Part shown: positions 4,004 to 34,322 of the stretch, piece by piece
Layout: each line of letters begins with the position of its first letter
Position numbering within the stretch: position 1 is the first letter of the stretch
DNA from: Atribacterota bacterium
Lineage (GTDB): Bacteria; Atribacterota; Phoenicimicrobiia; Phoenicimicrobiales; Stramentimicrobiaceae
Reading direction: 5' to 3'
Assembly (NCBI GenBank): GCA_040774925.1
Contig: JAXGTM010000003.1
Span: 1-35,357, forward strand
DNA: 35,357 nucleotides
Position numbers and translations under genes: made by a program
Notes under the pieces: generated by a model
What the model was told of the DNA's origin: nothing
Database searches by the model: none
Seen by the model: the letters and a program-made list of their open reading frames with translations, nothing else

Positions 4004-4295
4004 TATTAGAGAAAATTAATTAATAATTATGGCAGTTTGAAAGATGTCAAATATGATGATTACAATTTTTATATATAAATAAATTTGATTTAAATTAACT
4101 AATTTAATACATAAGTCAGTGAATTGCCCTTAATAGTGGTTTTGTCAATATTTCTTTAATAATTTCAATTCTAAATACAACATTTATCATACCTTCATTA
4201 TTTGCATAAAGTACTCAGCTATCTTCAGTTTATACTTTTTTGGTTCTATGATATGATTAATGTTGTTATAGGTTTTTTTCTGGAGGTTTAATGTG

Positions 4296-5891
4296 ATGAA
4301 AAATAATGGTACTTATTTTATAGGGGTAGATATTGGAACTGGCAGTGTTAGAGCTGCTGTCTTTTCGGCTGCCGGTAAAATGATTGGTTTAGGCATTTCC
4401 CCAATTAGAATTTATCGGCCTAAAGAAGATTTTGTGGAACAATCATCAGAAAATATTTGGAAACAATCTGGTAATGCTGTCAAACAGGCAATTGCAATGG
4501 CAAATATTCCAACTTCATCAATAAAGGGAATAGGGTTTGATGCAACATGTTCTTTAGTTGCATTAGGTACCGAATTCGAACCCATTTCAATATCTCCTAC
4601 AGGTAAGAAAGACCAGAATATTATTGTATGGATGGATCATCGTGCCTTAAAAGAAGCAGCTGAAATTAATGAAACTGATGACGAGGTCTTGAGATATGTA
4701 GGTGGCAAAATTAGTCCAGAAATGCAAATTCCAAAAATCTTGTGGTTAAAACGAAATTTACCTGAACAGTATAAAAATACAAAAAAGTTTTTAGATTTAG
4801 CAGATTATATGGTTTTTCGCTCTACCGGAGAAGATGTTCGAAGTGTTTGTACCATGACTTGCAAATGGACATATCTTGCTCATGAAAAACGCTGGAGTAA
4901 AAAACTATTTAAAGAAATTCAATTAGAAGATTTATTTGAAAATAATCGTATAGGATCTAAAATCGAGGAACTAGGTAAGCCTGTAAACTATTTAACCAAA
5001 AAAGCTGCTGCCAATTTTGGTTTAACCACCGACACAATAGTATCAGTGGGAATAATTGATGCTCATTCTGGAGGATTAGGCATAGTTGGACCCAATCCTG
5101 AAGAAACCATATCTATCATTGCAGGTACTTCTTCTTGCCATATGGCTATCAGCAAAGAACCCCTATTTGTCCCTGGCGTTTGGGGGCCCTATTTTGGTGC
5201 CATGCTCCCAGATATGTGGCTGAATGAGGGTGGACAGAGTTCAGCTGGTTCGTTAATTGACTATATTATTTCAGAATCTGCCATTTTCCCTGATCTCAAG
5301 AGAGAAGCAAAAAAGAAAGGGGCAAGCTATTATGAAATACTCAATGATGTAATAAATGAAATGGAAAAAGAAAATATCTATTTAACCAAAGATTTTCATC
5401 TATTAGGATATTTTCATGGTAATCGTTCTCCAAGGGCAAATCCGAATTTGAAAGGAATGATTAGTGGTCTTACATTGAATCAAACAAAAATGGAGTTAGC
5501 AAAGAAATATTTAGCAGCAGCACAATCTGTTGCTTATGGAACAAGACATATCATTGAAACAATGAATGAGGCTGGCCATAAAATAAAAAATATTCATATG
5601 TGCGGTGGAATAGCCAAGAATAGATTGTGGCTTAGAGAACATGTGGATATAACAGGGTATGAGATTGTCCTACCTGAAGAACTGGAATCAGTCCTTTTAG
5701 GTGGTGCTATACTTGCTTCAACTGCTTCAGGGTATTACCCGGATATCTATACGGCAATTAAATTTATGTGGGGTAAAGGTGAAAAAATCATTCCTGGAGA
5801 TCAATTAAAACAACAGTTTCATGAAAAGAAATACAGAGTATTTCAGGAATTATATCTTGACCAGTTAAAATATCAAAAGATGATGGAATGA
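4296..5891 (+). CDS. FGGY-family pentulose kinase (D-ribulokinase-like)
   Basis: GVDIGTGSVRA, GFDATCSLV, WMDHRA, SPEMQIPKILWL and FHGNRSPRA are motifs of the FGGY/D-ribulokinase subfamily. SD GGAGGT at 4282-4287 favours ATG 4296 (GTG 4293 is an alternative). Confidence 0.88.
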   Translation: MKNNGTYFIGVDIGTGSVRAAVFSAAGKMIGLGISPIRIYRPKEDFVEQSSENIWKQSGNAVKQAIAMANIPTSSIKGIGFDATCSLVALGTEFEPISISPTGKKDQNIIVWMDHRALKEAAEINETDDEVLRYVGGKISPEMQIPKILWLKRNLPEQYKNTKKFLDLADYMVFRSTGEDVRSVCTMTCKWTYLAHEKRWSKKLFKEIQLEDLFENNRIGSKIEELGKPVNYLTKKAAANFGLTTDTIVSVGIIDAHSGGLGIVGPNPEETISIIAGTSSCHMAISKEPLFVPGVWGPYFGAMLPDMWLNEGGQSSAGSLIDYIISESAIFPDLKREAKKKGASYYEILNDVINEMEKENIYLTKDFHLLGYFHGNRSPRANPNLKGMISGLTLNQTKMELAKKYLAAAQSVAYGTRHIIETMNEAGHKIKNIHMCGGIAKNRLWLREHVDITGYEIVLPEELESVLLGGAILASTASGYYPDIYTAIKFMWGKGEKIIPGDQLKQQFHEKKYRVFQELYLDQLKYQKMME

Positions 5892-6224
5892 AATTGAAGA
5901 GTAACGATAGACTAAAACTATTGTACTGTTTACTACAAAGAAGAAAATATACTTTGTGATATTTTATAGTAGTATTACTTTTGTTACCAGAATTTTTAGA
6001 AATGAGTGTCAATGTTATAATTACTTCATTTTATTTTTAGGTGCGGGGTATATCTTTGAGGTGGGGAATAAGACATAACTACCTCTTTTACTATAATATT
6101 ATCCTTATTTCAATCAACTCATAAATTGTTATACTTAAGCACAGCTACTTGTAAATTACAATTTTCTAAGATAATCAATAAATTATAGATTATTATGAAA
6201 AAAACGTAAGACTTACTTCAAATA

Positions 6225-6253
6225 TTGACAATTATAGAATATCCTTTTATAAT
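6225..6253 (+). promoter_or_regulatory. Consensus sigma70 promoter of the lacI-TRAP operon
   Basis: TTGACA (6225-6230), 17 bp, TATAAT (6248-6253). Confidence 0.85.
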
Positions 6254-6268
6254 ATAACTGATAATAAT

Positions 6269-6282
6269 TGTAATCGATTACA
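6269..6282. promoter_or_regulatory. LacI-family operator
   Basis: Perfect palindrome TGTAATCGATTACA with central CG, typical of LacI/GalR sites, just downstream of the predicted +1. Confidence 0.8.
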
Positions 6283-6344
6283 TTTCATTCATTAACTATT
6301 ATAATCATTTTCTTCACAATTTTCTTACAGTTTTAATAATAAAT

Positions 6345-7370
6345 ATGAAAATAAATATTAAAAATGTAGCTGAAAAAGCAGGATTTTCTACAGCAACTGT
6401 TTCAAGAGTTTTGAGAAATTACCCCGGAGTTAGAGAACAGACAAGAAAAAAAATTCTGAACACTATATCCGAATTAAATTACGAGATTAATGCTGTTGCT
6501 AGAAATCTTAGACAGAAAAAAACTTATTCTATTGGGATAATAGTAGGTAATGTACTTTCACAATTTTATTCAGTAATTGCCAAATCTGTTGAAGATACCG
6601 CCAACAAATATGGATATAACGTTATTTTATGCAATGGAGATGAAGACCCAGAAAAGGAATTGAATTATTTGAGGGTTTTAAAATCTAACAGAGTAGATGG
6701 CATTATACTAACCCCCACAGGTAAAAATTCTACCTATATAAAGCATTTAATAAATTCTGGAACCAGAGTAGTACTTCTAGACCGTTTATTGGAAGGGGTA
6801 AACTGCGACACTGTATTAGTTGATAATGCAATTGGTGCTTATAAGGCTGTAAGGCATTTAATAGAGAGAGGATATAAAAAAATTGGCATAGTAAATGGTT
6901 ATCTTGACCGAACTACCGGTGCTGAAAGATTGAGAGGTTATCTAAATGCACTTAGGGAAGCGGGAATTACAAAAGATGACAGTTTAATTAAAATGGGTAA
7001 TTTTAAAAAAGAAAATGGTAGAAAGTTAACTAAAGAGTTGCTGAATCAACCAAACAAACCAGAAGCAATCTTTACCGCTAATATAGACATTTCCATAGGT
7101 GCCCTAATTGCAATTAAAGAAATGAATTTGAAGATTCCTGAAGATATAGGCATTGTCTGTTTTGATGATTCAGACTGGATGTCAATTTTTGAGCCCCCTA
7201 TTACAGTAATCAGGCAGCCAGTATATCAATTAGGTTCTCAAGCTAGCGAGCTACTAATTAAAAAAATTGAAAATGAACAGAATGACTTATCTATAAATAA
7301 CAGAATAATATTAAATACGGAACTAATCATCAGAAAATCTACTAGAAAATTAAATAATTCAATTAAATAA
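6345..7370 (+). CDS. LacI-family transcriptional regulator
   Basis: N-terminal HTH (IKNVAEKAGFSTATVSRVL), hinge ARNL, sugar-binding domain (IPEDIGIVCFDD, PPITVIRQP). Confidence 0.95.
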   Translation: MKINIKNVAEKAGFSTATVSRVLRNYPGVREQTRKKILNTISELNYEINAVARNLRQKKTYSIGIIVGNVLSQFYSVIAKSVEDTANKYGYNVILCNGDEDPEKELNYLRVLKSNRVDGIILTPTGKNSTYIKHLINSGTRVVLLDRLLEGVNCDTVLVDNAIGAYKAVRHLIERGYKKIGIVNGYLDRTTGAERLRGYLNALREAGITKDDSLIKMGNFKKENGRKLTKELLNQPNKPEAIFTANIDISIGALIAIKEMNLKIPEDIGIVCFDDSDWMSIFEPPITVIRQPVYQLGSQASELLIKKIENEQNDLSINNRIILNTELIIRKSTRKLNNSIK

Positions 7371-7493
7371 CTGTTATTCTTGCCTCCGGTTAACCCTATA
7401 TATAAGAAAGGAGGTGAATTAAAACAATCTTCATAATATTTTCTTTGTATTAATTAGCAAGTAAATAAAGTTAGATTAAAAGGAGAGTTTGTT

Positions 7494-8513
7494 ATGAAAA
7501 GAGTTAAAATTGTTTTAATGTTATGTTTGTTTTTTCTTTTATCATCAATAGTAGCTTTTGCTCAGCAGCCAACATATCATCTAAAATTTTCCACTGCTGC
7601 CACTCCTTTAGAGCCACAAACCCAAGGATTTATGAAATTTGCTGAGGTCATAGAGGGTTTGACAAATGGGGACATTAAAGTAACCATTTATCACTCTGGT
7701 CAGTTAGCAGACCAAAAAACACAGGTTCTCGGTACAATGAGGGGAGATATTGAAATGTCTGATGGTGCACCTTCCTGGTTTGGAGACCTCGTTCCATATC
7801 CAGAAATAGGAGTATTAGAGGCTGCATATGTTTTTAAAAATTTAGACCATCTATACTACGTGGTAAATGGCCCTATAGGAAAAGCTTACTGGGATGAACT
7901 CAGAAAGCGTTCAGGATTAGTAGTGCTAGACACCTGGTTTTTAGGAACCAGACAGTTAAATCTGACTAAAAAAGCAGGTGAAGTAAGAACTCCTGAAGAT
8001 TTAAAGGGTGTTAAACTAAGAATGCCTGGTTCTGAGGCATGGATGGATGTCGGTCGTGGATTAGGTGCTCAACCCACTCCTTTAGGATTTAATGAGGTAT
8101 ATATGGCTCTAAAGACCGGCACTATTGATGGACAGGATAATCCGCTACCAACTGACTATTCCAGTAAATTTTATGAAGTGACACATTACATCGTCTTAAC
8201 TGATCATCAAATGACCATAATTAATCCCACTATTAATGAAAAAGTGTGGGAAAGCTTGCCGGAAGAATACAAAGTTTATATGAAAATGGCACTAATGGTG
8301 GGAAGAAACTATTGTAATCAATTAGTTTTAGAACAGGAAGCAAGTCTGATTGCTAAATTCCAAAATGAATATGGTATGGAGATTATTGTTCCGGATAAAG
8401 ATGCATTTATGGCAAATGTGAAAAAGGTATATGAAAAGAATGATGATCTATGGGGTAAGGGTGTCTATGAGATGATACAAAATGTCAGTTCAGAATTGTA
8501 TGATGCAGAATAA
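7494..8513 (+). CDS. dctP: TRAP transporter substrate-binding protein, SiaP-like
   Basis: Signal peptide (..SIVAFA/QQ); GTRQ, DLKGVKLRMP (carboxylate-binding Arg), PLGFNEVYMALKTGTIDGQDNPL. Confidence 0.93.
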   Translation: MKRVKIVLMLCLFFLLSSIVAFAQQPTYHLKFSTAATPLEPQTQGFMKFAEVIEGLTNGDIKVTIYHSGQLADQKTQVLGTMRGDIEMSDGAPSWFGDLVPYPEIGVLEAAYVFKNLDHLYYVVNGPIGKAYWDELRKRSGLVVLDTWFLGTRQLNLTKKAGEVRTPEDLKGVKLRMPGSEAWMDVGRGLGAQPTPLGFNEVYMALKTGTIDGQDNPLPTDYSSKFYEVTHYIVLTDHQMTIINPTINEKVWESLPEEYKVYMKMALMVGRNYCNQLVLEQEASLIAKFQNEYGMEIIVPDKDAFMANVKKVYEKNDDLWGKGVYEMIQNVSSELYDAE

Positions 8514-8544
8514 TCAGTTTAGTGACCCCTAAAAATTTCCTGAA

Positions 8545-8583
8545 CAGTAAGAGGGGTAAGAAATGTTCCTACCTCTCTTACTG
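8545..8583 (+). other. Intercistronic stem-loop after dctP
   Basis: CAGTAAGAGGGGTA...TACCTCTCTTACTG, a 14-bp stem with one G-U pair and no U tract. Confidence 0.7.
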
Positions 8584-8632
8584 AAATAGCCGTAACTGGT
8601 ATTTTCTTAAAACAAAGAGGGGGAATTACTCA

Positions 8633-9139
8633 ATGAAATCCTTAAAGAATATATGTAATTACATATTCATTTTTTTTGAAGAGTATTTATCATCTTTAGC
8701 TTTACTGGTGTGTGCCGCTACTGTTACAATACAAGTTTTTTATCGATATTTTCTTAATATTTCTTTAGAATGGCCTTTTGAATTATCTGTTTATGCCTAT
8801 ATCTGGGCTTTGTATCTTGGTGCAGCCTGGGGAGTAAGAGAAGAACATCATGTTAAATTTAATATAGTATATGATGCCCTGTCTCCAAAGGTACAAAAGA
8901 TAATCGACATAATTTTCAATTCTATTACTACAATTGTTTTTATAATTATTTTTATACCTGTATGGGATTATCTGTTATTCAATTACAGGATTAAGACAGC
9001 TGCTCTTAAAATTCCCTGGACTTATGTTTTCGGTGTATTCTCCATATTCTTGACCTTAACAATTATTCACAATATTGGACATATTGTTCGTGATATCAAA
9101 TTTTTGATGACAAGTAAAAAATTAGAAAACAGAGGGTAA
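8633..9139 (+). CDS. dctQ: TRAP transporter small permease
   Basis: 168 aa, four hydrophobic segments, QVFYRY..WPFELS, GVREEHHV. Confidence 0.92.
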   Translation: MKSLKNICNYIFIFFEEYLSSLALLVCAATVTIQVFYRYFLNISLEWPFELSVYAYIWALYLGAAWGVREEHHVKFNIVYDALSPKVQKIIDIIFNSITTIVFIIIFIPVWDYLLFNYRIKTAALKIPWTYVFGVFSIFLTLTIIHNIGHIVRDIKFLMTSKKLENRG

Positions 9140-9145
9140 GATAAA

Positions 9146-10438
9146 ATGCTTATAGCAATATGGGTAATTCTATTTGCAATTATGTTTATATTTGGATATC
9201 CTATTATCTTTGCCGTTTCCGTTCCTTCAATACTTTATGTAATTTTGGCAAAAATACATTATGCAGTTATTGTAGATGCTATGGTAATAGGTTTTGAAAA
9301 ACAATTTGTTTTATTGGCTGTACCATTATTTATTCTTGCTGCCAGAATAATGAATGAGAGTTTGATAACCGAACGTCTTTTTAATTTTGCCGGTAGATTG
9401 GTAGGTTCACTGAAAGGTGGGCTGGGACAGGTCAATGTGTTAGTTTCAGTTCTATTTGCTGGAATGACCGGTTCGGCAATAGCCGATGCCTCTGGATTAG
9501 GGATAATAGAAATAAGAGCTATGAATGATGCCGGCTTCGATCCAGAATTTAGCTGTGCCGTTACTGCAGCGAGTGCAACACTAGGTCCTATTATCCCCCC
9601 AAGTATCCCTATGGTTATTTATTCAATGACTTCAGGAGCTTCTTTGGGCCATTTATTTCTTGGTGGAGTTCTTCCTGGTGTATTTTTAGCAGGGGCTATG
9701 ATGGTCTATGTTGCCTATATTTCAAATAAACGAAACTATCCTACTGGAGAACCATTCAATTTAAAAAGTTTAATGAAAGCTTTTTTTAAGGCATTTTTTC
9801 CATTATTGACACCAGTCATCCTATTGGGAGGCATATACGGTGGAGTGTTTACACCAACTGAGGCAGCTGCAGTTACTGTGTTTTATGCTTTTGTATTATC
9901 AGTATTTGGCTATCGTATTTTAGGATTCAAAGGATTGGTAAAAGTTTTTAAAGAATCTGCTCTAAGTACCGGGTATGTTTCAGCAATGGTAGCAGCTGCT
10001 CTTATTTTTAGTTATATTGTTTCGAGAGAGCAGTTGCCTGTAGCTATAACCAATGCCGTTATGAATTCAGGGATTGTTACCAATAAATATATTTTCCTCT
10101 TATTTGTCAATTTACTGTTATTACTATTAGGTTGTTTTATGGATCCCATTGTAGGATTGCTTATCGTAATGCCTATACTTGTACCAATAGCCATATTATT
10201 TGAAGTTGATTTAGTCCATTTTGGAGTTATAACAACATTGAATCTTATGATTGGCCTCTGTACTCCACCTTATGGAGAGAGTTTGTTTATAGTAAGTGCC
10301 ATATCAAAGGTTCCTTTAGGAGGGATTATTAGGGAAATGTGGCCTTTTCTCGCAGTCTTAATAACTGTTTTACTTATTTGTACATATTTCCCAGAGATAA
10401 TTCTGTTTATTCCAAAATTGGCAGGATATGTACCTTAA
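9146..10438 (+). CDS. dctM: TRAP transporter large permease
   Basis: LLAVPLFILA, FAGMTGSAIADA, GPIIPPSIP, GVFTPTEAAA, GLCTPPYG. Confidence 0.95.
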   Translation: MLIAIWVILFAIMFIFGYPIIFAVSVPSILYVILAKIHYAVIVDAMVIGFEKQFVLLAVPLFILAARIMNESLITERLFNFAGRLVGSLKGGLGQVNVLVSVLFAGMTGSAIADASGLGIIEIRAMNDAGFDPEFSCAVTAASATLGPIIPPSIPMVIYSMTSGASLGHLFLGGVLPGVFLAGAMMVYVAYISNKRNYPTGEPFNLKSLMKAFFKAFFPLLTPVILLGGIYGGVFTPTEAAAVTVFYAFVLSVFGYRILGFKGLVKVFKESALSTGYVSAMVAAALIFSYIVSREQLPVAITNAVMNSGIVTNKYIFLLFVNLLLLLLGCFMDPIVGLLIVMPILVPIAILFEVDLVHFGVITTLNLMIGLCTPPYGESLFIVSAISKVPLGGIIREMWPFLAVLITVLLICTYFPEIILFIPKLAGYVP

Positions 10439-10505
10439 AAATATATTTTTTAAATACTCGTTTCTAAAATGTGCCAGCATTAGAAAAAATAAGGAGATAT
10501 TAAAA

Positions 10506-11717
10506 ATGCAAATTAACTCAAAATTATTAGAAAAATATTATCAGGAGATAGAAGAAAAAAGTAGGAATAATTTAGATAAAACAATAAAAAAAATAATTGA
10601 GGTAAAGAAAAAAGGTGGGAACATTATGGTAGTTACCGGTAGTGGTCCCAATATTCACGAAGGTGTTACCACATTAATTTCTGAATTGATGGATAAGAGC
10701 ATCATAGATAGTGTTAGTACCAGTTCTGCTGTAATTGCTCATGAAATGGCAGGAAGTTTAGATAAGGTTAAAAGGGTCAAGGTGGATAAATTAGGGATCC
10801 AATTCGATAAGAGCATAATTCCCAGAGGAGATTTTTTTGAACTCACTCAAATGGAGCAAGGATATTTAGATAAACTGAAGGAAGAGATGATTTTAGATGA
10901 ATCCTTGTTAGAAAAATTAGAATCCGCTGATGGTGACATTATTATAAAGGCAGCAGGAAACATGGCATACCCTATGGGTCTAAGAACTGAAAATCTCTCT
11001 CGTGATATATTCCACATTGCTCAAACATATAATTTACCTTTTGAGGAAGTGGCTGGTTGGGCAGCAGATAAAAAGACCATGATAGGAAAAGGGGCAGAGA
11101 AATCCCTGCCGGTAATCGTTACTGTGCCTCAGCTTGTCGGAGGGGGAATGGTAGGTATCTTACTTGCTGATAGTATTTCTATATCGGAGAGATCGATGCG
11201 TATTGCCAGGATGTTAGAAGAGGCGGATATTATTATAGAATCAGCAGTTGCCTTAACTCAAGAGATACATGATGGTCCTTTTGAATGTTATACAGGTCAT
11301 GGAATATGGTCTCATTGGAACGGAATTAACACTTATAGTCTGAGAGAAAAAACTATTATCAGGATTGATTTGGACCAGAACCTGATGACAGCTAAGTTGA
11401 TGGAGATTGAAAATAAAAAGATTCAAGAATCTATAAACAAAGGATTACCCAAGACCAAGGTTACCGGTATACCATTTCGAATGGAGATGTCAGCTTTTGC
11501 CCGTCATGAATATAGCATTCCCATAGTCGGTGATATTGGGAAAATCTGGCCCATAATAGCCTACAGGGTTGCCGATGAACTCGGTATTGATCTTGATTTT
11601 ATCAGCTACCCTCAGGAATCTGAAGAAGGTAAGAATATGAGAGAGTGGATTGTAGAACACGTTAAACCTATTGATAGGACAGAACTTTTGAAACAGGCTC
11701 AGCGATATAAATTATAA
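10506..11717 (+). CDS. Uncharacterised protein with deoxyhypusine-synthase (DHS)-like NAD-binding fold
   Basis: Start re-called to ATG 10506 (SD AAGGAG at 10491-10496), 403 aa. Segments NIHEGVTTLISELMDKSIIDSVSTSSAVIAHE, KTMIGKGAEKSLPVIV and IVGDIGKIWPII line up by eye with DHS-family patterns; no SWGK catalytic-Lys motif. Confidence 0.6.
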   Translation: MQINSKLLEKYYQEIEEKSRNNLDKTIKKIIEVKKKGGNIMVVTGSGPNIHEGVTTLISELMDKSIIDSVSTSSAVIAHEMAGSLDKVKRVKVDKLGIQFDKSIIPRGDFFELTQMEQGYLDKLKEEMILDESLLEKLESADGDIIIKAAGNMAYPMGLRTENLSRDIFHIAQTYNLPFEEVAGWAADKKTMIGKGAEKSLPVIVTVPQLVGGGMVGILLADSISISERSMRIARMLEEADIIIESAVALTQEIHDGPFECYTGHGIWSHWNGINTYSLREKTIIRIDLDQNLMTAKLMEIENKKIQESINKGLPKTKVTGIPFRMEMSAFARHEYSIPIVGDIGKIWPIIAYRVADELGIDLDFISYPQESEEGKNMREWIVEHVKPIDRTELLKQAQRYKL

Positions 11718-11743
11718 TTTATTTTGAAAGGAGTAAATACAAT

Positions 11744-12487
11744 ATGAAAGTAGTAGGTATTATTCCTGCCCGATATAGTTCAACCAGATTACCGGGAAAA
11801 CCCTTAAAAGATATTGGTGGGAAAACGATGATTCAAAGGGTATATGAGAGTGTGAGAAAATCTAAATTATTGGATGATGTGATTGTAGCCACAGATGACC
11901 AGAGAATATTTGACGAGGTGTTAGGATTTAAAGGGAAAGTTGCAATGACTTCAAAAGACCACCCCAATGGAACTTCTAGAATTGCAGAGGTTGTAAAAGA
12001 TATGGATATAGATGTGGCAATAAATATTCAGGGAGATGAACCTTTTATTTCTAATGAGATGATAGATGAATTAACAGGAACATTAACAGAAAACGCTGAT
12101 ATAAATATGGCTACTCTATGCTATCAACTTAATGATGAAAAAAAGTTTAAAGACCATAATGTGGTAAAAGTGGTATGTGATGTTAATGGTAATGCTTTAT
12201 ATTTTAGCCGTTCTTTAATTCCATATCCCAGAAAAGAAATTAATTTTAAGGTATATGAACACGTAGGAATTTATGGTTATCGAAAACCATTTCTTCAGGA
12301 ATTTGTGGAATTAGAAGATACACCCTTATCACTCATAGAATCATTGGAGCAATTAAAAGCCTTAGAGTATGGTTACAAAATACATGTTGTTGAGACCAAG
12401 TACAACTATGTGGCCCTGAGCATTGATACACAAGAAGATTTAGAAGAGGCCAGGAGAATTATTAAAGAAAGCAAAGAAATTATTTAA
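11744..12487 (+). CDS. kdsB: 3-deoxy-manno-octulosonate cytidylyltransferase (CMP-Kdo synthetase)
   Basis: IIPARYSSTRLPGKPL, VATDD, GTSRIAE, NIQGDEP, ALYFSRSLIPY, HVGIYGYR, ESLEQL, SIDTQEDL. Confidence 0.93.
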   Translation: MKVVGIIPARYSSTRLPGKPLKDIGGKTMIQRVYESVRKSKLLDDVIVATDDQRIFDEVLGFKGKVAMTSKDHPNGTSRIAEVVKDMDIDVAINIQGDEPFISNEMIDELTGTLTENADINMATLCYQLNDEKKFKDHNVVKVVCDVNGNALYFSRSLIPYPRKEINFKVYEHVGIYGYRKPFLQEFVELEDTPLSLIESLEQLKALEYGYKIHVVETKYNYVALSIDTQEDLEEARRIIKESKEII

Positions 12488-12581
12488 ATTTAGAGGTCTA
12501 TCTTATATAAAAATATATAAGATGAGATCTTCTCTTCAAAGAACAGAACAAAAAGTATCATGAAACCTGGAGTGTAAAGAA

Positions 12582-13034
12582 ATGATTATAGATGTTTTGG
12601 AAAATGCCACTATGTATATGCAAATAAACAACAGATTTGGAAAAGCCTTTGATTTTTTAAAAAATACCAATCTCTTAGAACTAAACTCTGGAAAGTATGA
12701 AATAGAGGGAAATGAAATCTATGCCTCAGTAGATACCTATTATACTGTACCTAAAGAAAAAAAAATGTGGGAAGCGCATCGGCGTTATATCGATATACAA
12801 TTCTTAATTAAAAATAGCGAACAAATGGGTTATGCCCATCTGGAACAGATGAAACAAATCACAGAATATGATGAAGATAAAGACATAGTATTTTATGAAG
12901 GGAATGGTAATTTTTTTACGGTTAATCCAGGAACTTTTGTGATTTTCTTTCCTCAGGATGCACATATGCCAGGTGTTGAAATAGAAAAATCAAAAGAAAT
13001 AAAAAAGATTGTAATAAAAGTTCTTGCAGATTAA
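12582..13034 (+). CDS. YhcH/YjgK/YiaL (NanQ-like) family protein
   Basis: 150 aa; WEAHRRYIDIQF, YDEDKDI, FVIFFPQDAHMPG, IKKIVIKV. Confidence 0.92.
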   Translation: MIIDVLENATMYMQINNRFGKAFDFLKNTNLLELNSGKYEIEGNEIYASVDTYYTVPKEKKMWEAHRRYIDIQFLIKNSEQMGYAHLEQMKQITEYDEDKDIVFYEGNGNFFTVNPGTFVIFFPQDAHMPGVEIEKSKEIKKIVIKVLAD

Positions 13035-13086
13035 CAGTGATTTGTTATTTATAAGATAAAACTAATAATTTAAGAGGTAAAGTAAA

Positions 13087-13980
13087 ATGAAGAGAATGAA
13101 AAACCTTGTAGTCCCTACCATTACTCCATTTGAAGAAAATGGTGATATTGATATTGAAGCAACAAAATCCCATTACGATTTTTTACTTAAAGCAGGAGTG
13201 AAGAATTTTTACATTTTAGGAACAACCGGCGAAGTATTCTTAATGAATAAAGAAGAGAGAAAAAAAACGGCAGAAATAATAGTTGATTTTGTTGGGAATA
13301 AGGGAAATGTTTTTATTCATATTGGTGCTCAGCCAACTGTAGATGCTTGCGAATTGGCCGCACATGCAGAAAATATTGGAGCAGCAGGGGTAGGAGCAGT
13401 AACTCCATTCTATTTTAAGTTCAGCCAAATCGAATTAGAGGAGTATTATCTATCTATAGCAAAGAGTGTAAAAGAAGACTTTCCCGTTTATTTGTATAAT
13501 CTACCTGGTTGTACCACAAATGATTTGCTGCCGGAAACTGTATCTAAATTGGCCAGAGTAGATAATATAATAGGAATAAAAAACAGTATGTCTGATATCT
13601 TCAGACTAACCCGATTAGTTGATGAAACACCTGAAGATTTTGATGTAATTATAGGTTCAGATCCCATAATTTTACCTGCTATGCTTTCTGGAGCTAAAGG
13701 GAGTGTATCTGGAAATGCCAATGTATTCCCTGAGGTATTTTTAGGATTATTCCAGGCATTAGAAGAAAATAATTACGAAAAAGCTCATCAAAAACAGATT
13801 GCCATAAAGAATATTGCAATGGCTTTAAAAGATGGTGCAAATCTGGCGTATTTTAAAGAGGCTCTTGTTCACAGAGGCTTTAAAAAGACCTTTACCAGAA
13901 AACCGATATTGGGACTTAGCCAGGAAGAAAAAGATCAGTTAAAGGTTGATATGCAAAGAATTATTGAAAATTACCTTTGA
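13087..13980 (+). CDS. DHDPS/N-acetylneuraminate-lyase-family class I aldolase; candidate Kdo aldolase
   Basis: TITPF, LGTTGE (pyruvate-carboxylate loop), YLYNLP (catalytic Tyr), IGIKNS (Schiff-base Lys). Substrate is inferred from context only. Confidence 0.88.
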   Translation: MKRMKNLVVPTITPFEENGDIDIEATKSHYDFLLKAGVKNFYILGTTGEVFLMNKEERKKTAEIIVDFVGNKGNVFIHIGAQPTVDACELAAHAENIGAAGVGAVTPFYFKFSQIELEEYYLSIAKSVKEDFPVYLYNLPGCTTNDLLPETVSKLARVDNIIGIKNSMSDIFRLTRLVDETPEDFDVIIGSDPIILPAMLSGAKGSVSGNANVFPEVFLGLFQALEENNYEKAHQKQIAIKNIAMALKDGANLAYFKEALVHRGFKKTFTRKPILGLSQEEKDQLKVDMQRIIENYL

Positions 13981-14307
13981 GATTTTTAACACCTATTGCC
14001 GGTAATTAAATATAGTTTTTGTATTTTTAGAATTATTTTCAGAGATGGGTATTTTGCTCACAAGATTGTTTTACTACTCGAATGACAGGACAATTATGTT
14101 ATTAAATGCATTACATCAATGATCTCTTCAGAATCAATGATGATTTTTTTGAAATAGGGTATGATGATAAAATTGTCTTGGCTGAGGTAAATTATCTGGT
14201 TTTATTTTGTTGTGTAATTATTACTGAACTGACAGAACGCTATCTTAGCGGTTAGTATAATTAAAAAATATTTATACTACAAAAATTTAATAGAGAGGAG
14301 CTATAAA

Positions 14308-16095
14308 ATGAACTTTGAAAACAGATTAATCGGCTCACTTCCCCGAGTGGGGATAAGACCAATTATAGATGGAAGAAGAAGGGGAGTACGTGAATCTCTG
14401 GAAGATCAGACTATGAGAATGGCGAAAAGGGCAGCCAATTTGATAAGTTCACATTTGCATCATCCTAATGGTTTGCCGGTAGAGTGTGTTATTGCAGATA
14501 CTACTATAGGAGGAGCGGCAGAAGCTGCAAAATGTGCTGATAAATTTTCTCGTTCCAATGTTGGAGTATCTTTCAGTGTTACACCCTGTTGGTGCTATGG
14601 TATGGAAACAATCGATATGGACCCCTCTCTGCCAAAGGCTATCTGGGGATTTAATGGAACTGAAAGACCTGGTGCTGTTTACCTGGCAGCAGCACTGGCT
14701 GGGCATGATCAGCTGGGGTTGCCTGCTTTTGGTATTTATGGAAAAGAAGTAATGGATGCTGATGATGAAAGTATCCCGGAGGATGTTAAAGAAAAGATAT
14801 TGCAATTTGTCAAAGCAGGATTAGCAGTTGCATTTATGAAGGGAAAATCTTACCTTTCTTTAGGCAGTGTATCAATGGGGATTGCCGGTTCACTGGTAAG
14901 CCCGGAATTTTTAAAAGACTACCTGGGAATGCGAACTGAATTCGTAGATATGTCTGAATTTGTACGTAGGATGGAAGAGGGTATCTTTGATAAAGAGGAA
15001 TATCAGAAAGCATTGACCTGGGTAAAAGAAAACTGCAGGGAAGGTGAAGATAGAAATAAAGAGAGTATCAGACATTCTGCCCAACAAAAGGAAAAAGAAT
15101 GGGAAATAGTGGTTAAGATGACTCTCATTGCCCGGGATTTAATGGTCGGTAATAAGAGATTGGCAGAGATTGGTTATCCTGAGGAAGCAGAGGGACATAA
15201 TGCTATTGCCGCTGGATTCCAGGGACAGAGACAATGGACTGATCATTTCCCCAATGGAGACTTTACCGAGACGATACTAAATACTTCTTTTGATTGGAAT
15301 GGTATTCGTGAGCCATTTACTTTTGCCACAGAAAATGATTGCCTGAATGGAATTGCTATGTTGTGGAACCACCTGCTGAGTAATAGAGCACAGATTTTTT
15401 CGGATGTACGAACCTTCTGGAGCCCTGAATCGGTAAAAAGGGTTACCGGTAAAAAGTTGAATGGAAAAGCAGAGAATGGAATTATACACCTCATTAATTC
15501 TGGTGCTACAACTCTTGATGCTACCGGTCAGCAGAAGGAAAATGGTCGTTCAGTAATGAAACAATTCTGGGAAATAAATGAACAAGATATCAAGGCATGT
15601 CTTGAGAATACCAGGTGGAGTCCGGCTAGTTTGGAGTATTTTCGAGGAGGAGGTTTTTCTTCTACTTTCTGGACGCGTGGCGAAATGCCTGTAACAATGT
15701 CGCGAATTAATCTGATTAAAGGGCTGGGTCCTGTTTTACAGATTGCCGAAGGCTATACAGTGGAATTACCAGATGATATTAGCTATATTTTAACTGAACG
15801 AACCGATCCCACCTGGCCGACTACCTGGTTTGTACCTAGATTAACCAATAAGGGAGCTTTTCGAGATGTTTATTCTGTAATGAATTTTTGGGGTGCCAAT
15901 CATGGCGCAATCAGTTATGGACATATAGGAAAAGATTTAATTACTTTAGCTTCTCTATTAAGAATTCCAGTTGCCATGCACAATGTACCTGAAGATAAGA
16001 TCTTCAGACCCAAGGCCTGGAGTGCCTTTGGAACACAGGATTTAGAAAGTTCAGACTTCAGAGCATGTCAAAATTTTGGACCACTCTATAGATGA
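14308..16095 (+). CDS. fucI: L-fucose/D-arabinose isomerase
   Basis: 595 aa; [43 protein letters not shown], metal ligands in ATEND, SDVRT and WGANH. Confidence 0.97.
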
Positions 16096-16648: not shown

Positions 16649-17386
16649 ATGCTTTATCCTGTAAAAGAGACACCAGAATTTGAAGGAAAAGAGATACTAT
16701 ATGGTTTGAATGAAAATAGTACTAATGAGGAGATAAAAGCAAAGGCATTTGAACTTTTAAAGAAAGTTAGGAGTATGCCTGCTGCAACCGTAAAAGATGG
16801 ATTACCTGAAATACGGGTAATCGATTTTTGTTTACTATCAGACGGTTATTTTTATTTTATCGCATCTAAAGGTAAGAATATTCATGAGCAGCTTATGAAA
16901 ACTCCATATATTGCCCTTTGTGAGAGGATAGAGAGATGGTATGCTGTACGGTTGATGGCACATGTTACTCCTGTAATGGATAAAGAGGTGTGGGATGAAT
17001 TTTTCCTCTATAATCAGGGTTCAGCATCGATGTATGCTTCAAATCCTCATCTGTTAGAATTATTCAGACTCGATGCGGGAGAAGGTGAGATTTTTCATCT
17101 CTACCATGATAAAAGATTGAAACGTGCCCGCTTTGCTTTTGGAGGAATGGAAGTAAAACCAATGAACTATACCATAACTGACCGGTGTACAGGTTGTGGT
17201 ATATGCTTAGAAGTCTGTATGGAATCCTCCATAGTAGAAGATGGTGATAAATATAGAATATCTTATATGGATTGTAATGATTGCGGCAAATGTTATGTAG
17301 TCTGTCCGGAACAAGCTATTGATTGCCGGTTATATAATGAAGAGTGGCATGAAAGGATGATGAAAAGTTTAGAGTTGAATAACTAA
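16649..17386 (+). CDS. Pyridoxamine-5'-phosphate-oxidase-like (FMN split-barrel) domain fused to a 2x[4Fe-4S] ferredoxin domain
   Basis: N-terminal ATVKDGLPEIRVID..YFIASKGK..QLMKTP; C-terminal CTGCGICLEVC and CNDCGKCYVVCP. Confidence 0.8.
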   Translation: MLYPVKETPEFEGKEILYGLNENSTNEEIKAKAFELLKKVRSMPAATVKDGLPEIRVIDFCLLSDGYFYFIASKGKNIHEQLMKTPYIALCERIERWYAVRLMAHVTPVMDKEVWDEFFLYNQGSASMYASNPHLLELFRLDAGEGEIFHLYHDKRLKRARFAFGGMEVKPMNYTITDRCTGCGICLEVCMESSIVEDGDKYRISYMDCNDCGKCYVVCPEQAIDCRLYNEEWHERMMKSLELNN

Positions 17387-17451: not shown

Positions 17452-18462
17452 ATGAAAAAGAAGTATGTTATTCTTTTAGTTGTGCTTGTTCTTCTAACAT
17501 CGGTATTTGTTTCTTATGGTAATGAGGTAAAAAAAATTAGATTAGGCCATTCAGGACCTCCTGGCTCAAGCATCGATGTGGGTGTACAGAATATTGCTAA
17601 AGAAATAAAAGAAAAGACTGATGGTGCGTTAGTTATTGAGATTTATCCAGGTGCTCAACTAGGAGATGAAAATGTAATGCTCGATTCTCTAATGAGTGGT
17701 ACTCTAGATATGGATTTAGCAGGTACGCCAATTATGGCGAATGTAATGCCTGAATTCAATATGCTCTCTATGCCATTTTTATTCAGAAATACAGATGAAT
17801 TCTTTGCAATAGTTAATAGCAAAGATTTCATAGAGAAATGTAATGAGTTAACAATTCCCAAAGGCATTGTCCTTCTCGGATTTCCCAATGGAGAAATGCG
17901 TGGATTATCCAACGTTAAACGAGAAGTAAGAACTCCTGAGGATTTAAAAGGTCTAAATCTAAGGGTTATGGCTGGACCCCTATATACCGATATATTCAAA
18001 GCGATGGGTGCAATGACGACAACACTTGCCTTTGGAGAAGTATACTCAGGATTACAACAGGGCGTAATAGATGGGGAAGATAATGGAATTAATATGCTTG
18101 ACATGATGAAATTTATGGAAGTTGAAAAATTCCATACTGCTCTTGGGCATACTATCCAGACAAATCCCATTTTAATAAATAAAAAACTTTGGGATAGATT
18201 GCCTGAAGAGCAACAGAAAATTATGAAAGATGTCATTTTTGCTCAAGCTCAGGCATATCCGGAAGAAATACTAAAACCTCAGATAGAAGCATCTAAGAAA
18301 AAGGTTGAAGAAAATGGAGTAAAAGTAGTAATGGAACTGACCCAGGAAGAATATGAAGCCTTTAAAAACTCTGTTTCTTCTGTATATGATAAATATAAAC
18401 CTGAAATTGGTGATGATTTCTATGAATATGTTATGAATCAGATAGATTCATATCGTAAATAG
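17452..18462 (+). CDS. dctP: TRAP transporter substrate-binding protein
   Basis: Signal peptide, IEIYPGAQLG, PFLF, DLKGLNLRVM, FGEVYSGLQQGVIDGEDN. Confidence 0.93.
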   Translation: MKKKYVILLVVLVLLTSVFVSYGNEVKKIRLGHSGPPGSSIDVGVQNIAKEIKEKTDGALVIEIYPGAQLGDENVMLDSLMSGTLDMDLAGTPIMANVMPEFNMLSMPFLFRNTDEFFAIVNSKDFIEKCNELTIPKGIVLLGFPNGEMRGLSNVKREVRTPEDLKGLNLRVMAGPLYTDIFKAMGAMTTTLAFGEVYSGLQQGVIDGEDNGINMLDMMKFMEVEKFHTALGHTIQTNPILINKKLWDRLPEEQQKIMKDVIFAQAQAYPEEILKPQIEASKKKVEENGVKVVMELTQEEYEAFKNSVSSVYDKYKPEIGDDFYEYVMNQIDSYRK

Positions 18463-18477
18463 ATAATAGCAATAAGC

Positions 18478-18501
18478 AGGCGGCAAAGTATTTTGCCGCC
18501 T
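18478..18501 (+). other. Intercistronic stem-loop after second dctP
   Basis: AGGCGGCAAA-gtat-TTTGCCGCCT, a perfect 10-bp stem. Confidence 0.75.
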
Positions 18502-18548
18502 CTTCTATTCTTATACATACAATTTATATATTCGGGAAGAAATAGAAA

Positions 18549-19058
18549 TTGAAGAAGCTGAAAAACATTTTTACACAAACTGAGATGGTAATAGTAACCA
18601 TACCTTTATTTATGCTTTGTATTCTTACCGTTGTACAGATAATAATGCGTACTATTTTTAAGACAGGAATTCACTGGCTCGAAGAGTTTGGCAGGTATAT
18701 ACTGCTCTACAGCACATTCATTGGAGCTGGAATTGCCATAAAAAGTGATGAACATCCACGAATGACAGCAATCATCGCAGTATTGCCGGAGAAAATGGCA
18801 TACATTGTTAATATATTAGGTGATTTAATATGTGCTACAATTTTGCTGGTTTTAGATTACTATGCCTGGATACAGGTAATAAATGTGTTTGTTCGTGGAA
18901 CCCGTACCTCAACTCTTCCTCTTCCCATGTGGATTGTGTATGCAATATTGCCTGTAGCTATGATTATAATGTCTGTCCGTTACATAGCTTCAGCTAGAGA
19001 TAAATTTATATTATTAAAAAAATTAAAAAATCTAAAAGATAAAGGAAGAGGAGAATAG
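18549..19058 (+). CDS. dctQ: TRAP transporter small permease
   Basis: QIIMR..WLEEFGRY..FIGAGIAIKSDEH; four hydrophobic segments. Confidence 0.92.
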   Translation: MKKLKNIFTQTEMVIVTIPLFMLCILTVVQIIMRTIFKTGIHWLEEFGRYILLYSTFIGAGIAIKSDEHPRMTAIIAVLPEKMAYIVNILGDLICATILLVLDYYAWIQVINVFVRGTRTSTLPLPMWIVYAILPVAMIIMSVRYIASARDKFILLKKLKNLKDKGRGE

Positions 19059-19063
19059 GGCAT

Positions 19064-20332
19064 TTGTTAGTAGTATTTTTATTTTTTCTTCTTTTATGTA
19101 TGGGGATACCCATTGCTTTTGTTGTATTGGTGGCATCCACCATAGGAATCTGGGTATATTCTGGTATTTCTCTACAGATAGTCATACAAACACTTTATAG
19201 TGGATTAAACAACTACCTTCTTCTGGCAATTCCCTTTTTCATAATGTCTGGTGCAGTAGCTGCGCGGGGTGATACCTCTAAATATCTTATAAAAGTAATG
19301 AGAATATTTTTTGGAAGAGTATATGGCGGTAGTCTGATAGGTGCAATTTTAGCTTGTACCTTTTTTGCGGCAATATCTGGCTCTAGTATAGCTACAATCA
19401 TCGCCATAGGAAGCCTTGTAATACCATCTATGCTGGAAGAGGGTTATCCTGATCATATGCCTATTGGGGTAATTACCTCTGGAGGTTCATTGGGGATTTT
19501 AATTCCACCAAGTGCTCCAATGGTCGGTCTTTGTGTTGCTATGGGTACCTCAGTTAGTGCTTTATTTGCGGCTGGTTTTATACCAGGGTTACTACTGGCA
19601 GCTGTTTGGATCGGATATGCCTTGATTTCTTCCAGAAAAATGAAGGTTGGTAAACGGGAAATATACTCTTTTAAAGAATCTGTACAGATTCTTTTTAAAG
19701 CAATTCCAGCCCTATTATTCCCCGGAATAGTGCTGGGAGGGATTTATCTAGGGCTTGCTACTCCCACAGAGGCGGCAGCTATATCCGTTATATATGTAAT
19801 ACTTGTTGAATTGTTTGTTTATAAGACAATAAAACCGGATGAGCTTTTCAAAAGCCTTTTCAACTCATTGGTAACATCTGCTACTATGACTTTCATAGTA
19901 TCCTGTGCAGCTGTTATTACATGGTTTGTGACAACACAGCAAATACCGGCTTTAATAAACAATTTTATTGTCTCAACAGTCTCTTCAAAGGCAGCTTTTC
20001 TACTACTCTTATTTGTGTTATTTTTCATTGTAGGATGTTTTATGGATTTATTCGCTTTATTGATTATATTGGGACCTATTCTTGCTCCTGTTCTTGCAGT
20101 TTATGAAATAAATCCTGTCCATTTTGGTATAATCTGTATAATGTCTACTCAGATTGCTTTTCTCACCCCACCTTTTGGACTAAACCTTTTTGTTTCTATG
20201 AGTCTTACTAAGAAAGGTCTATGGGAGACAGCTTATGCGACCATGCCTTATACGATTTTATTAGCAATAATCACTCTGCTTATTATGTTTGTTCCGCAAA
20301 TAACTCTCTGGCTACCAGGTATTTTAAGATAA
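19064..20332 (+). CDS. dctM: TRAP transporter large permease
   Basis: LLAIPFFI, FAAISGSSIAT, LGILIPPS, ATPTEAAA, LTPPFGLNLFV. Confidence 0.95.
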   Translation: MLVVFLFFLLLCMGIPIAFVVLVASTIGIWVYSGISLQIVIQTLYSGLNNYLLLAIPFFIMSGAVAARGDTSKYLIKVMRIFFGRVYGGSLIGAILACTFFAAISGSSIATIIAIGSLVIPSMLEEGYPDHMPIGVITSGGSLGILIPPSAPMVGLCVAMGTSVSALFAAGFIPGLLLAAVWIGYALISSRKMKVGKREIYSFKESVQILFKAIPALLFPGIVLGGIYLGLATPTEAAAISVIYVILVELFVYKTIKPDELFKSLFNSLVTSATMTFIVSCAAVITWFVTTQQIPALINNFIVSTVSSKAAFLLLLFVLFFIVGCFMDLFALLIILGPILAPVLAVYEINPVHFGIICIMSTQIAFLTPPFGLNLFVSMSLTKKGLWETAYATMPYTILLAIITLLIMFVPQITLWLPGILR

Positions 20333-32409: not shown

Positions 32410-33189
32410 ATGAATAACCAAAAACCGAATTATCCCATAAAAGTATTAAATAAAGCATTTTCAATCCTCGATGTATTGCTAGAAAACAATGCTCCAATGA
32501 ATATAACAGAAATTAGTGAAAAATTAAATTTTTACCCTAGTACCACTCACCGTATATTAGATACTTTAAAATACGAAGGATATGTAGAGCAAGATGGATC
32601 AACACAAAAATATCAATTGGGTTTGAAGCTAGTGGAATTAGGAATGACTAGGCTTAATCAAATTGACTTAGTAGATGAAGCTAGGCCATTTTTAAAGGAA
32701 TTATCACAAAAAATTAACGAAACTGTCCATTTAGCAATTCTTGAAGGTTCCAGCGTTCTTTATTTAGCCAAAGAGGAGTCTTCGCAAACAATAAGAATGA
32801 TTTCTTATATTGGTAAGAGGGCACCTTTGCATTGTACATCATTAGGAAAGGTTTTGTTAGCCTTTCTCCCTCAAAAGAATAAAAATAAAGTATTAGAAAA
32901 CCTTAACTTATTCAAACTCACAGAAAATACAATAACTGATAAACATGAATTAATAGAAGAGCTAAAAAAAATTGAACAAGAAGGTTTTGCATTAGATAAA
33001 GAAGAAAATGAAAAATTTGTTCGTTGCATTGCTGCTCCAATTAGAAATTACCAGGGAAAAGTAATTGCCGCTGCAAGTATTTCCGGACCCTCTTATAGGG
33101 TAAATGAGGAGAATCAAAATTATCTAAAAGAGGAATTAATTAATGCATGCTTAAATATTTCTTTTCGTTTAGGGTTTAATCCTGGTTAA
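32410..33189 (+). CDS. IclR-family transcriptional regulator (KdgR-like by context)
   Basis: KAFSILD HTH, KYQLGLKL, NETVHLA, GKRAPLHCTSLGKVLLA, CIAAPI, SISGP. Confidence 0.95.
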   Translation: MNNQKPNYPIKVLNKAFSILDVLLENNAPMNITEISEKLNFYPSTTHRILDTLKYEGYVEQDGSTQKYQLGLKLVELGMTRLNQIDLVDEARPFLKELSQKINETVHLAILEGSSVLYLAKEESSQTIRMISYIGKRAPLHCTSLGKVLLAFLPQKNKNKVLENLNLFKLTENTITDKHELIEELKKIEQEGFALDKEENEKFVRCIAAPIRNYQGKVIAAASISGPSYRVNEENQNYLKEELINACLNISFRLGFNPG

Positions 33190-33207
33190 TCTATTTATTG
33201 AAATAAA

Positions 33208-33272
33208 TTGACAAAACTAATTTAAATGTTATAATTAAAATAAAAATAGAATTAATTTCTATAATATAGAAT
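33208..33272 (+). promoter_or_regulatory. eda-kdgK promoter plus putative IclR operator 2
   Basis: TTGACA (33208-33213), extended -10 TGtTATAAT (33227-33235); operator AGAATTAATTTCTATAATATAGAAT (33248-33272). Confidence 0.78.
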
Positions 33273-33332
33273 TCATTGTGTAAATTATTTCCAAATGCTG
33301 AATTATTATTTTTGTAAATCGGAGTTTATAAA

Positions 33333-34292: not shown

Positions 34293-34322
34293 GAATAATA
34301 GTTTTTATAAAAAAGAGGAGCT

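Follow-up and report, generated by a model that had tools for sequence, protein, structure and literature searches.

A protein family paired with the CMP-Kdo synthetase gene kdsB has a predicted deoxyhypusine synthase-like fold and may act on Kdo or CMP-Kdo

What does a protein with a predicted deoxyhypusine synthase (DHS)-like fold do beside a gene for the activation of 3-deoxy-D-manno-octulosonic acid (Kdo)? The question is raised by a 35,357-nucleotide stretch of an Atribacterota bacterium (assembly GCA_040774925.1, contig JAXGTM010000003.1, positions 1 to 35,357), which is the whole DNA analyzed and is called the window here. In it, a gene that we call X (10506..11717, + strand) lies between dctM (end 10438) and kdsB (start 11744), which encodes a CMP-Kdo synthetase. 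Judged from its translation, homologues, structural model and fold matches, X encodes a 403-aa protein of an uncharacterized family with a predicted DHS/ornithine cyclodeaminase (OCD) fold. An earlier note, made from the sequence of the window, had seen in X a DHS-fold protein without the catalytic lysine, repurposed for an NAD-dependent reaction on Kdo, CMP-Kdo or a modified form.

The frame from 10506 to 11717 (+) is free of stops over its 403 aa. An in-frame ATG upstream, at 10428, would add 26 residues and overlap dctM; alignments of X with its homologues begin at residue 1 of the 403-aa form rather than at this ATG, and the Shine-Dalgarno-like AAGGAGAT (10491..10498, +; read from the sequence), with AAGGAG, stands 7 nt 5' of the ATG at 10506, so that 10506 is taken as the start. 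The gap between X and kdsB is 26 bp, and kdsB has its own AAAGGAG ahead of 11744. The coordinates, the translation and the strong ribosome-binding site thus bear out the open reading frame (ORF) that the earlier note had placed between dctM and kdsB, 26 bp from kdsB, and all the motifs it quoted are present in the translation, which contains GSGPNIHEG, SSAVIAHE, KTMIGKGAEKSLPV, QEIHDGP, TGHG, MEMSAFARH and VGDIGKIWPII. Because most of these motifs are invariant across 24–27 homologues from several phyla, with a mean column identity of 70% (two alignments, of 24 and 27 sequences), X is a real gene under strong constraint and not a chance ORF.

The neighborhood of X was compared over the best 80 of 570 relatives in species-representative genomes, 73 of which are informative, with at least 700 bp of DNA downstream of X (labels beginning with L and G denote loci and genomes). 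The kdsB gene lies directly downstream of X on the same strand in 43 of the 73 informative loci and within 1.5 kb in 47. Of 40 complete pairs, 27 show a 4-bp overlap between the stop of X and the start of kdsB (the loci L024 and L025 represent the same contig in two bins). The first context is a lipopolysaccharide (LPS) operon of Synergistota with the order (msbA)-lpxK-kdsA-kdsD-waaA-X-kdsB-Elm1-like glycosyltransferase (GT)-GT4. The waaA gene is found in 30 of the 80 loci, kdsA in 24 and kdsD in 28; X sits between waaA and kdsB in the 30 loci with waaA, all of which are labeled Synergistota except two contigs that are likely mis-binned. The second context, seen in Atribacterota, Spirochaetota, Chloroflexota, Poribacteria and Acidobacteriota, is a scavenging cluster in which a tripartite ATP-independent periplasmic (TRAP) or ABC transporter is accompanied by genes for a DHDPS-type lyase (14 of the 80 loci), YhcH (7), a BNR sialidase-like protein (3), FucI (3) or an FGGY kinase (3). 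X is linked to kdsB itself, both where the operon is one for LPS synthesis and where the cluster is a scavenging one, and the neighborhood check suggested in the earlier note thereby returned the association with kdsB and ulosonate genes across phyla. The deaminase and 8-amino-Kdo reactions that it also entertained found no such evidence, as no aminotransferase or Kdo8N-type gene occurs among the neighbors scanned by Pfam or tblastn, which are a part of those in the 80 loci. A literature search gave no paper linking Kdo with DHS, nor a DHS-like protein with kdsB in a relevant way. Prediction of an X-KdsB complex scored 0.00 in both runs (two alignments), which is uninformative either way on binding.

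The KdsB partners of X group together. In a maximum-likelihood tree of 49 KdsB sequences, built with no outgroup, a 100/100 branch has on one side all 29 X-linked KdsB, which carry the labels of six phyla, together with the unlinked KdsB of X-positive Acetomicrobium and one long-branched copy from Poribacteria. The other side holds 18 unlinked Synergistota KdsB, taken from genomes without X or, where X is present, as additional copies. Synergistota have two KdsB lineages split at this branch, an X-linked one that is common to other phyla and a divergent one, the latter present in X-negative Synergistota genomes and, beside another KdsB, in many genomes that have X. X-linked KdsB reach about 196–239 bits against the canonical model, compared with 146–196 bits for the others, and in G002 and G004 no other KdsB was found. 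From the tree, the higher scores and the sole copies, the X-linked KdsB are therefore ordinary-looking CMP-Kdo synthetases that move with X. In a sample of 121 Synergistota genomes, X occurs in 71 and kdsB in 116. X was found in 9 of 81 Atribacterota genomes, so it is an accessory gene there. As a separate observation, the LpxK proteins of five Synergistota loci are about 750–760 aa long (L007:2543-4807, L106:1694-3976, L107:568-2805, L108:12280-14550, L109:12148-14400); the LpxK domain occupies the first ~350 residues and the C-terminal 400 residues have no Pfam match at E <= 1e-5.

The family of X is large, compact, unnamed and uncharacterized. A word-indexed homologue search with X gave 3880 of 8000 scored candidates at E <= 0.001, and among the best 120 homologues all named rows but two read 'hypothetical protein'. 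An exhaustive search of 1.84 billion cluster representatives (50% identity) returned 179 at E <= 0.001, mostly fragments, the full-length ones being 54, 43, 41 and 34% identical to X, and no sequence bridge from the family to DHS was found in it. The closest relatives are labeled Atribacterota, followed by Synergistota, Spirochaetota, Chloroflexota, Bacteroidota, Poribacteria and Acidobacteriota. In the ESM Atlas, the cluster of X itself has 3704 members, the automatic name 'putative Deoxyhypusine synthase' and Synergistota as its commonest phylum, and DHS clusters reach X at lead level only (0.83–0.84). The distant full-length relatives P0126 and P0137 have lost the GSGPN.HEG and QEIHDGP motifs and offered no clue to function. 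One homologue, P0271 (885 aa on a 3.7-kb metagenome contig), joins a truncated KdsB to a full-length X and to a BNR sialidase-like domain with a signal peptide of its own at the start; in view of this internal signal peptide and the short contig, it was rejected as a Rosetta-stone fusion and is probably a gene-calling or assembly artefact. Its order of KdsB, X and BNR is that of the three genes standing side by side in L029. Long open frames around X in G068 and G047 were likewise set aside as stop-free stretches around an X ORF of normal length; the DNA there carries many overlapping long ORFs on both strands, and G122 is a third apparent case.

Matches of X to named families in Pfam and NCBIfam are all sub-threshold and all fall on residues about 20–90. 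X scores 18.0 bits against PF01916 (DS; cut-off 27) and 22.2 bits against TIGR00321 (DHS; cut-off 304.25), both within residues about 21–90, 20.4 bits against TIGR00300, 'ornithine cyclodeaminase, nickel-pincer nucleotide-dependent' (cut-off 410.8, E 2e-4), and 28.3 bits against NF052581, the GSU2086 family (cut-off 250, hmmscan E 1.2e-6); an ArgZ-like Rossmann domain is also matched below threshold at residues about 20–90. Sequence searches of the PDB with X alone or with an X profile gave nothing useful.

The structural comparison reaches further than the sequence. An AlphaFold model of X built on 24 sequences has a predicted local distance difference test score (pLDDT) of 88.9 and a predicted template modeling score (pTM) of 0.91. 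Foldseek against the PDB places DHS structures first (best 7cmc_D, E 1.8e-6, TM 0.43/0.56), and of 59 matches at E <= 0.001 those listed are all DHS, ArgZ/AgrE or LOR/SDH. VIA-align, a fold search independent of Foldseek over 48,161 chains, gives the AgrE C-terminal domain at Z 17.1 (rmsd 3.2, 217 aligned), DHS 8put_A at Z 16.8 (rmsd 3.6, 256 aligned), further DHS at Z 16.2 and 15.8, and the LOR/SDH protein 3c2q at Z 15.9. Below this group come Sir2 at Z 11.0 (about 10–11) and the middle domains of thiamine diphosphate (ThDP) enzymes at Z 9–10. On the matches of both searches X is placed in the DHS/OCD branch of the DHS-like NAD/FAD-binding fold. A DHS-like fold, which the earlier note had proposed and had wished to see compared with DHS structures by AlphaFold and Foldseek, is thus what the model and two independent searches predict.

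Compared with DHS (PF01916, TIGR00321; 7cmc, 8put, 1dhs), X is predicted to share the overall fold; the N-terminal strand-loop-helix-strand of the dinucleotide site aligns at X residues 23–79, and the GGG and (D/H)DG blocks follow in the same order. In contrast, the two share only about 10–14% identity with scores below the family cut-offs, about 40 residues of X around 265–305 have no DHS counterpart in the MAFFT alignment, the region around 85–150 is extended, and X stands among Kdo genes, not with eIF5A or polyamine genes. The best structural match is the LOR/SDH-type OCD domain (AgrE/ArgZ C-terminal, 6lrf, 6juy; 3c2q; TIGR00300), to which the weak TIGR00300 match, on the same N-terminal motif, also points. 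Such OCDs hold bound NAD+ or, according to an excerpt of PMC13524815, a nickel-pincer adenine dinucleotide (NPAD) and shuttle hydride without net redox. Unlike X, they belong to a context of amino-acid metabolism, and Lar genes were not found in the genome of the window.

The earlier note had set MEMSAFARH in the place of the catalytic Lys of the SWGK motif. The DHS sequences used for comparison, which carry ASSWGK, came from a Poribacteria genome and its relatives; a homologue search for DHS gave only close relatives (77–99% identity) and added little profile depth. Comparisons of X with DHS by hhalign were non-significant (E 0.62, 0.21 and 0.14 for one DHS sequence, a DHS profile of 12 rows and sub-profiles of the C-terminal part), and in the profile comparisons the first strand-helix-strand of the dinucleotide site was always aligned. 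In the C-terminal half, MAFFT and hhalign both pair GGG with GGG and (V)RDG with (I)HDG, and both set the DHS 'EASSWG' on 'QESINKG' of X. In these non-significant alignments the DHS Lys falls on the invariant L314 of 'NKGLPKTK' (hhalign), or SWG falls on NKG and the Lys beside the invariant LPKTK insert (MAFFT). The Lys comes to lie on F331 in MEMSAFARH only when the C-terminal strand-helix block is extended by eye without gaps, so the proposed position was not confirmed by the two programs. In every register the residue of X exactly at the DHS Lys is not Lys; however, the invariant K316 and K318 lie 2–4 residues off, and for this reason the absence of a catalytic lysine is not established.

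In the window, X belongs to a regulated cluster, all genes of which are on the + strand. It is headed by a LacI-family regulator (6345..7370; conserved in the Atribacterota loci L002, L004 and L005), followed by the TRAP genes dctP (7494..8513), dctQ (8633..9139) and dctM (9146..10438), all assigned by Pfam and NCBIfam. After X come its partner kdsB (11744..12487; TIGR00466 231.8 bits, cut-off 155.2; NF003952 315.3 bits, cut-off 193), a YhcH/YjgK/YiaL (DUF386) protein related to N-acetylneuraminate anomerase (12582..13034; PF04074 E 8.3e-49; NF040884 120.9 bits, cut-off 160), a DHDPS/NAL-family class I pyruvate lyase (13087..13980; PF00701 E 4.4e-65) and the L-fucose/D-arabinose isomerase FucI (14308..16095; NF008220 1083 bits). 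An FGGY-family pentulose/sugar kinase is encoded at 4293..5891 (Pfam FGGY_N, FGGY_C), as it is in the X locus L059.

Cleavage of Kdo by Kdo aldolase yields pyruvate and D-arabinose, and FucI, known from the fucose pathway of Escherichia coli, converts D-arabinose to D-ribulose. Taken together, the genes of 4293–16095 look like a complete route by which imported Kdo would be turned into pyruvate and D-arabinose, and the latter into D-ribulose and its phosphate. The lyase at 13087–13980, which scores below the dapA and nanA equivalog cut-offs, is by sequence a candidate gene for Kdo aldolase (EC 4.1.2.23); no paper on Kdo catabolism, including a Kdo aldolase gene or a growth route, was found under the phrases searched. 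Among solved structures, 4pf6_A is the nearest to DctP in sequence (E 8.8e-51), and the sialic-acid binding SiaP proteins rank behind it (E about 1e-43); Foldseek with a poor, single-sequence AlphaFold model of DctP (pLDDT 35.9) did not return 4pf6. The cluster resembles sialic-acid scavenging (SiaPQM, NanA, YhcH/NanQ, CMP-sialic acid synthetase) in TRAP uptake of a 3-deoxy-2-ulosonic acid, in the combination of class I lyase, YhcH protein and cytidylyltransferase, and in its SiaP-like DctP. It differs in that its cytidylyltransferase is a KdsB equivalog where sialic-acid systems use NeuA, and its downstream route runs over FucI and the FGGY kinase (D-arabinose) where they use NanK/NanE. The window genome, which is 86% complete, yielded no WaaA and no LpxC, and tblastn detected none of kdsA, kdsD and waaA; X and KdsB here therefore serve neither de novo Kdo synthesis nor classical LPS.

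Other features of the window and of related genomes lie beside this cluster. A PNPOx-like protein with two 4Fe-4S ferredoxin motifs is encoded at 16649–17386, and a second complete DctPQM TRAP system at 17452–20332 is followed by a GyrI-like protein. A second sugar-acid module at 32410–35351, with an IclR regulator, a KDPG/KHG aldolase and a PfkB kinase, is likely a 2-keto-3-deoxygluconate route. Some Atribacterota genomes have two copies of the TRAP-X-KdsB cluster (L001/L002, on two contigs of one metagenome-assembled genome, and G179), and these duplicated X copies are 83% and 80% identical to that of the window.

Our preferred reading, which we hold tentatively and at somewhat below an even chance, is that X with a bound nicotinamide cofactor makes a redox-neutral change on Kdo or CMP-Kdo. 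X would be the fixed partner of a canonical CMP-Kdo synthetase, KdsB, and would keep a nicotinamide dinucleotide as prosthetic group, as its structural relatives do. It would oxidize and re-reduce Kdo at the KdsB step, with either CMP-Kdo or the free sugar about to be activated as its substrate. Epimerization of a secondary alcohol would fit, as would transient formation of a 4-keto group that labilizes H3 and the C2 substituent, comparable to the action of NanOx/YjhC on sialic acid derivatives. NanOx/YjhC isomerizes sialic-type acids with tightly bound NAD+ through a 4-keto intermediate, and NanOx is a Gfo/Idh/MocA enzyme with a fold unrelated to that of X. The conversion by NanOx/YjhC, not its mechanism, is named in an excerpt of PMC7535918. 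For use in glycans X would yield either a repaired or re-isomerized Kdo or else an octulosonic acid in activated form, and the lyase branch would burn the surplus. In Synergistota that make LPS, the X-kdsB pair lies inside the Kdo/lipid A operon; in the Atribacterota genome, it lies in the regulated cluster, which would import a Kdo-type acid by TRAP and could cleave it to pyruvate and D-arabinose.

Several observations weigh against this reading, the LarC genes described below among them. The similarity of X to DHS in sequence is non-significant (18 against 27 bits in Pfam, hhalign E 0.21–0.62), and NAD binding by X is deduced from the predicted fold alone. The kdsB gene is not nearby in 26 of the 73 informative loci (rumen Synergistaceae/Fretibacterium, Bacteroidota, Acetomicrobium), and it persists in 45 of the 50 sampled Synergistota genomes without X, so that X is not needed for KdsB function as such. 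Activation at the expense of CTP would seem too costly for the main catabolic route of a fermenter; for this reason, an X-KdsB pair in a WaaA-less genome, with no CMP-Kdo acceptor identified, fits the reading poorly. Furthermore, we know of no Kdo epimer in any glycan.

A second DHS-fold family bears on the kind of reaction. GSU2086 (NF052581) is the closest named sequence family to X, and hhalign aligns the two with a probability of 60% and E 8.6e-5, over 74 columns only, against E 0.21 for DHS; as X reaches 28 bits where the cut-off is 250, it is not a member. In both, the second strand is followed by a His-acid pair (AHE in X, IHD in GSU2086), whereas GSU2086 proteins are about 315 aa long and lack the C-terminal extension of X. 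The partner of GSU2086 is the ADP-heptose pathway and that of X is Kdo; GSU2086 is itself uncharacterized. In the genome G003, one co-directional LPS locus has the order kdsD-waaA-X-kdsB ... O-antigen ligase-GSU2086-HldE-heptosyltransferase (GT9), with the GSU2086-family gene immediately upstream of HldE (L140, G003:C2:570500-590400, 4354-5304, - strand). GSU2086 also has heptose-related neighbors elsewhere, being preceded by a heptosyltransferase in G005 and by a PfkB+HAD fusion in G004. Two sister DHS-fold families thus stand immediately upstream of nucleotidyltransferases, each next to that of one of the two inner-core sugars, and a role at the nucleotide-activation step is therefore favored. 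The ADP-heptose 6-epimerase is NADP-dependent, and analogy with it favors an epimerase-type, redox-neutral reaction of X, while the GSU2086 family appears, by the same kind of analogy, to have a corresponding role beside HldE. The bolder proposal, that X and GSU2086 form a DHS-fold class of hydride-shuttling enzymes for activated inner-core sugars (CMP-Kdo for X, ADP-heptose for GSU2086) and that X makes a new Kdo isomer, e.g., a CMP-linked epimer, is one we regard as unlikely. If it were true, the glycans of Synergistota, Spirochaetota, Atribacterota and others would contain an octulosonic acid that has not been described, and the LarC encoded beside X in some Synergistota may load X with a nickel-pincer cofactor.

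The dinucleotide pocket could instead bind CMP-Kdo or CTP, and X would then handle CMP-Kdo without redox chemistry, as a hydrolase, as a transferase with an acceptor yet to be named or as a carrier for the labile product of KdsB. CMP-Kdo is short-lived; X is tightly paired and translationally coupled with KdsB, nucleotide users without redox activity, such as Sir2, also have the DHS-like fold, and no WaaA-type enzyme to accept CMP-Kdo was found in the window genome. In fold, however, X matches the redox enzymes DHS and OCD best, by a clear margin over Sir2, and the sequence of X has no transferase or hydrolase signature in Pfam or NCBIfam, and we judge this explanation to be rather improbable, a little more so than the bolder proposal above.

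Less probable again is that X is a hydride-transfer enzyme with a nickel-pincer cofactor, the nucleotide (NPN) or NPAD, like the TIGR00300 ornithine cyclodeaminases, and not an NAD enzyme. An NPAD-dependent ornithine cyclodeaminase exists, as stated in the excerpt of PMC13524815, and X shows the weak TIGR00300 match and the structural likeness to the AgrE OCD domain and 3c2q already given. A gene for LarC (PF01969) follows X-kdsB directly on the same strand in 10 of the 71 X-positive Synergistota genomes (L106–L109 in G057, G066, G025 and G095, together with G073, G075, G060, G106, G077 and G088), which Pfam confirmed in all four loci fetched; in G066, G106 and G077, which also have a split canonical LarC, this gene is a second and divergent copy. 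In G005, X and a LarC gene are 7 kb apart. The unexpected embedding of LarC in a Synergistota LPS operon hints at another cofactor; a literature search for LarC and Kdo gave only noise. Presence of LarC in Synergistota does not discriminate, since it is near-universal there (115 of 121), and among 80 loci from other lineages LarC is nearby in only one. In the family of the window, LarC was found in none of 19 searched genomes, including the X-positive G000 (86% complete), G167 (96%), G179 (91%) and G193 (81%), and LarE (TIGR00268) was above cut-off in none of five X-positive, LarC-negative Atribacterota genomes. Across the Atribacterota sample, LarC is no commoner in genomes with X (4 of 9) than in those without it (44 of 72). 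X cannot in general depend on a nickel-pincer cofactor, and two different cofactors are unlikely because X proteins with a linked LarC and those from genomes lacking LarC do not differ in the putative cofactor-site residues.

That X replaces KdsC (Kdo-8-phosphate phosphatase) or KdsD (arabinose-5-phosphate isomerase) is very improbable. No KdsC is encoded within the Synergistota lpxK-kdsA-kdsD-waaA-X-kdsB operons, the N-terminus of X has a weak profile match to the SIS-domain phosphosugar isomerase 3g68 (E 0.29 over 60 residues), and VIA-align gives SIS folds at Z 8.2 (3etn) and 7.6 (1x92). These Z values, however, are within the common-arrangement range of the tool, KdsD (SIS+CBS) is encoded in the same operons as X, and since neither kdsA nor kdsD was found in the window genome there would be no Kdo-8-phosphate for X to act on there; the substitution for KdsC was rejected, with KdsC (TIGR01670) above cut-off in all three Synergistota genomes tested (G001–G003) and X present where kdsA was not found.

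That X is a genuine polyamine enzyme of the deoxyhypusine or homospermidine synthase type, incidentally placed at kdsB, is equally hard to credit: the predicted DHS fold, one homologue named 'deoxyhypusine synthase', a precomputed PF01916 match in 3 of the best 120 homologues and a spermidine synthase gene two genes downstream of X in L051 speak for it, but X scores far below the cut-offs (18 against 27 bits for PF01916, 22 against 304 bits for TIGR00321), no alignment matches the catalytic Lys of DHS with a Lys of X, G005 encodes a true DHS besides X and the partner conserved across phyla is kdsB, not a polyamine gene, so that, on scores, context and the coexisting DHS, this identity was rejected, in agreement with the earlier note, which had also held X not to be such a synthase.

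The route to Kdo2-lipid A, with its five enzymes KdsD, KdsA, KdsC, KdsB and WaaA, is regarded as complete and is a drug target. A conserved sixth gene beside kdsB, which also moves with kdsB where no LPS genes were found, means that the activation or reuse of Kdo is not fully understood. With thousands of family members, a confident model and cheap substrates (Kdo, CTP and KdsB), the question of what X does is directly testable. The same cluster also offers a candidate Kdo aldolase and, with it, a candidate route for growth on Kdo from bacterial necromass or from plant and algal cell walls.

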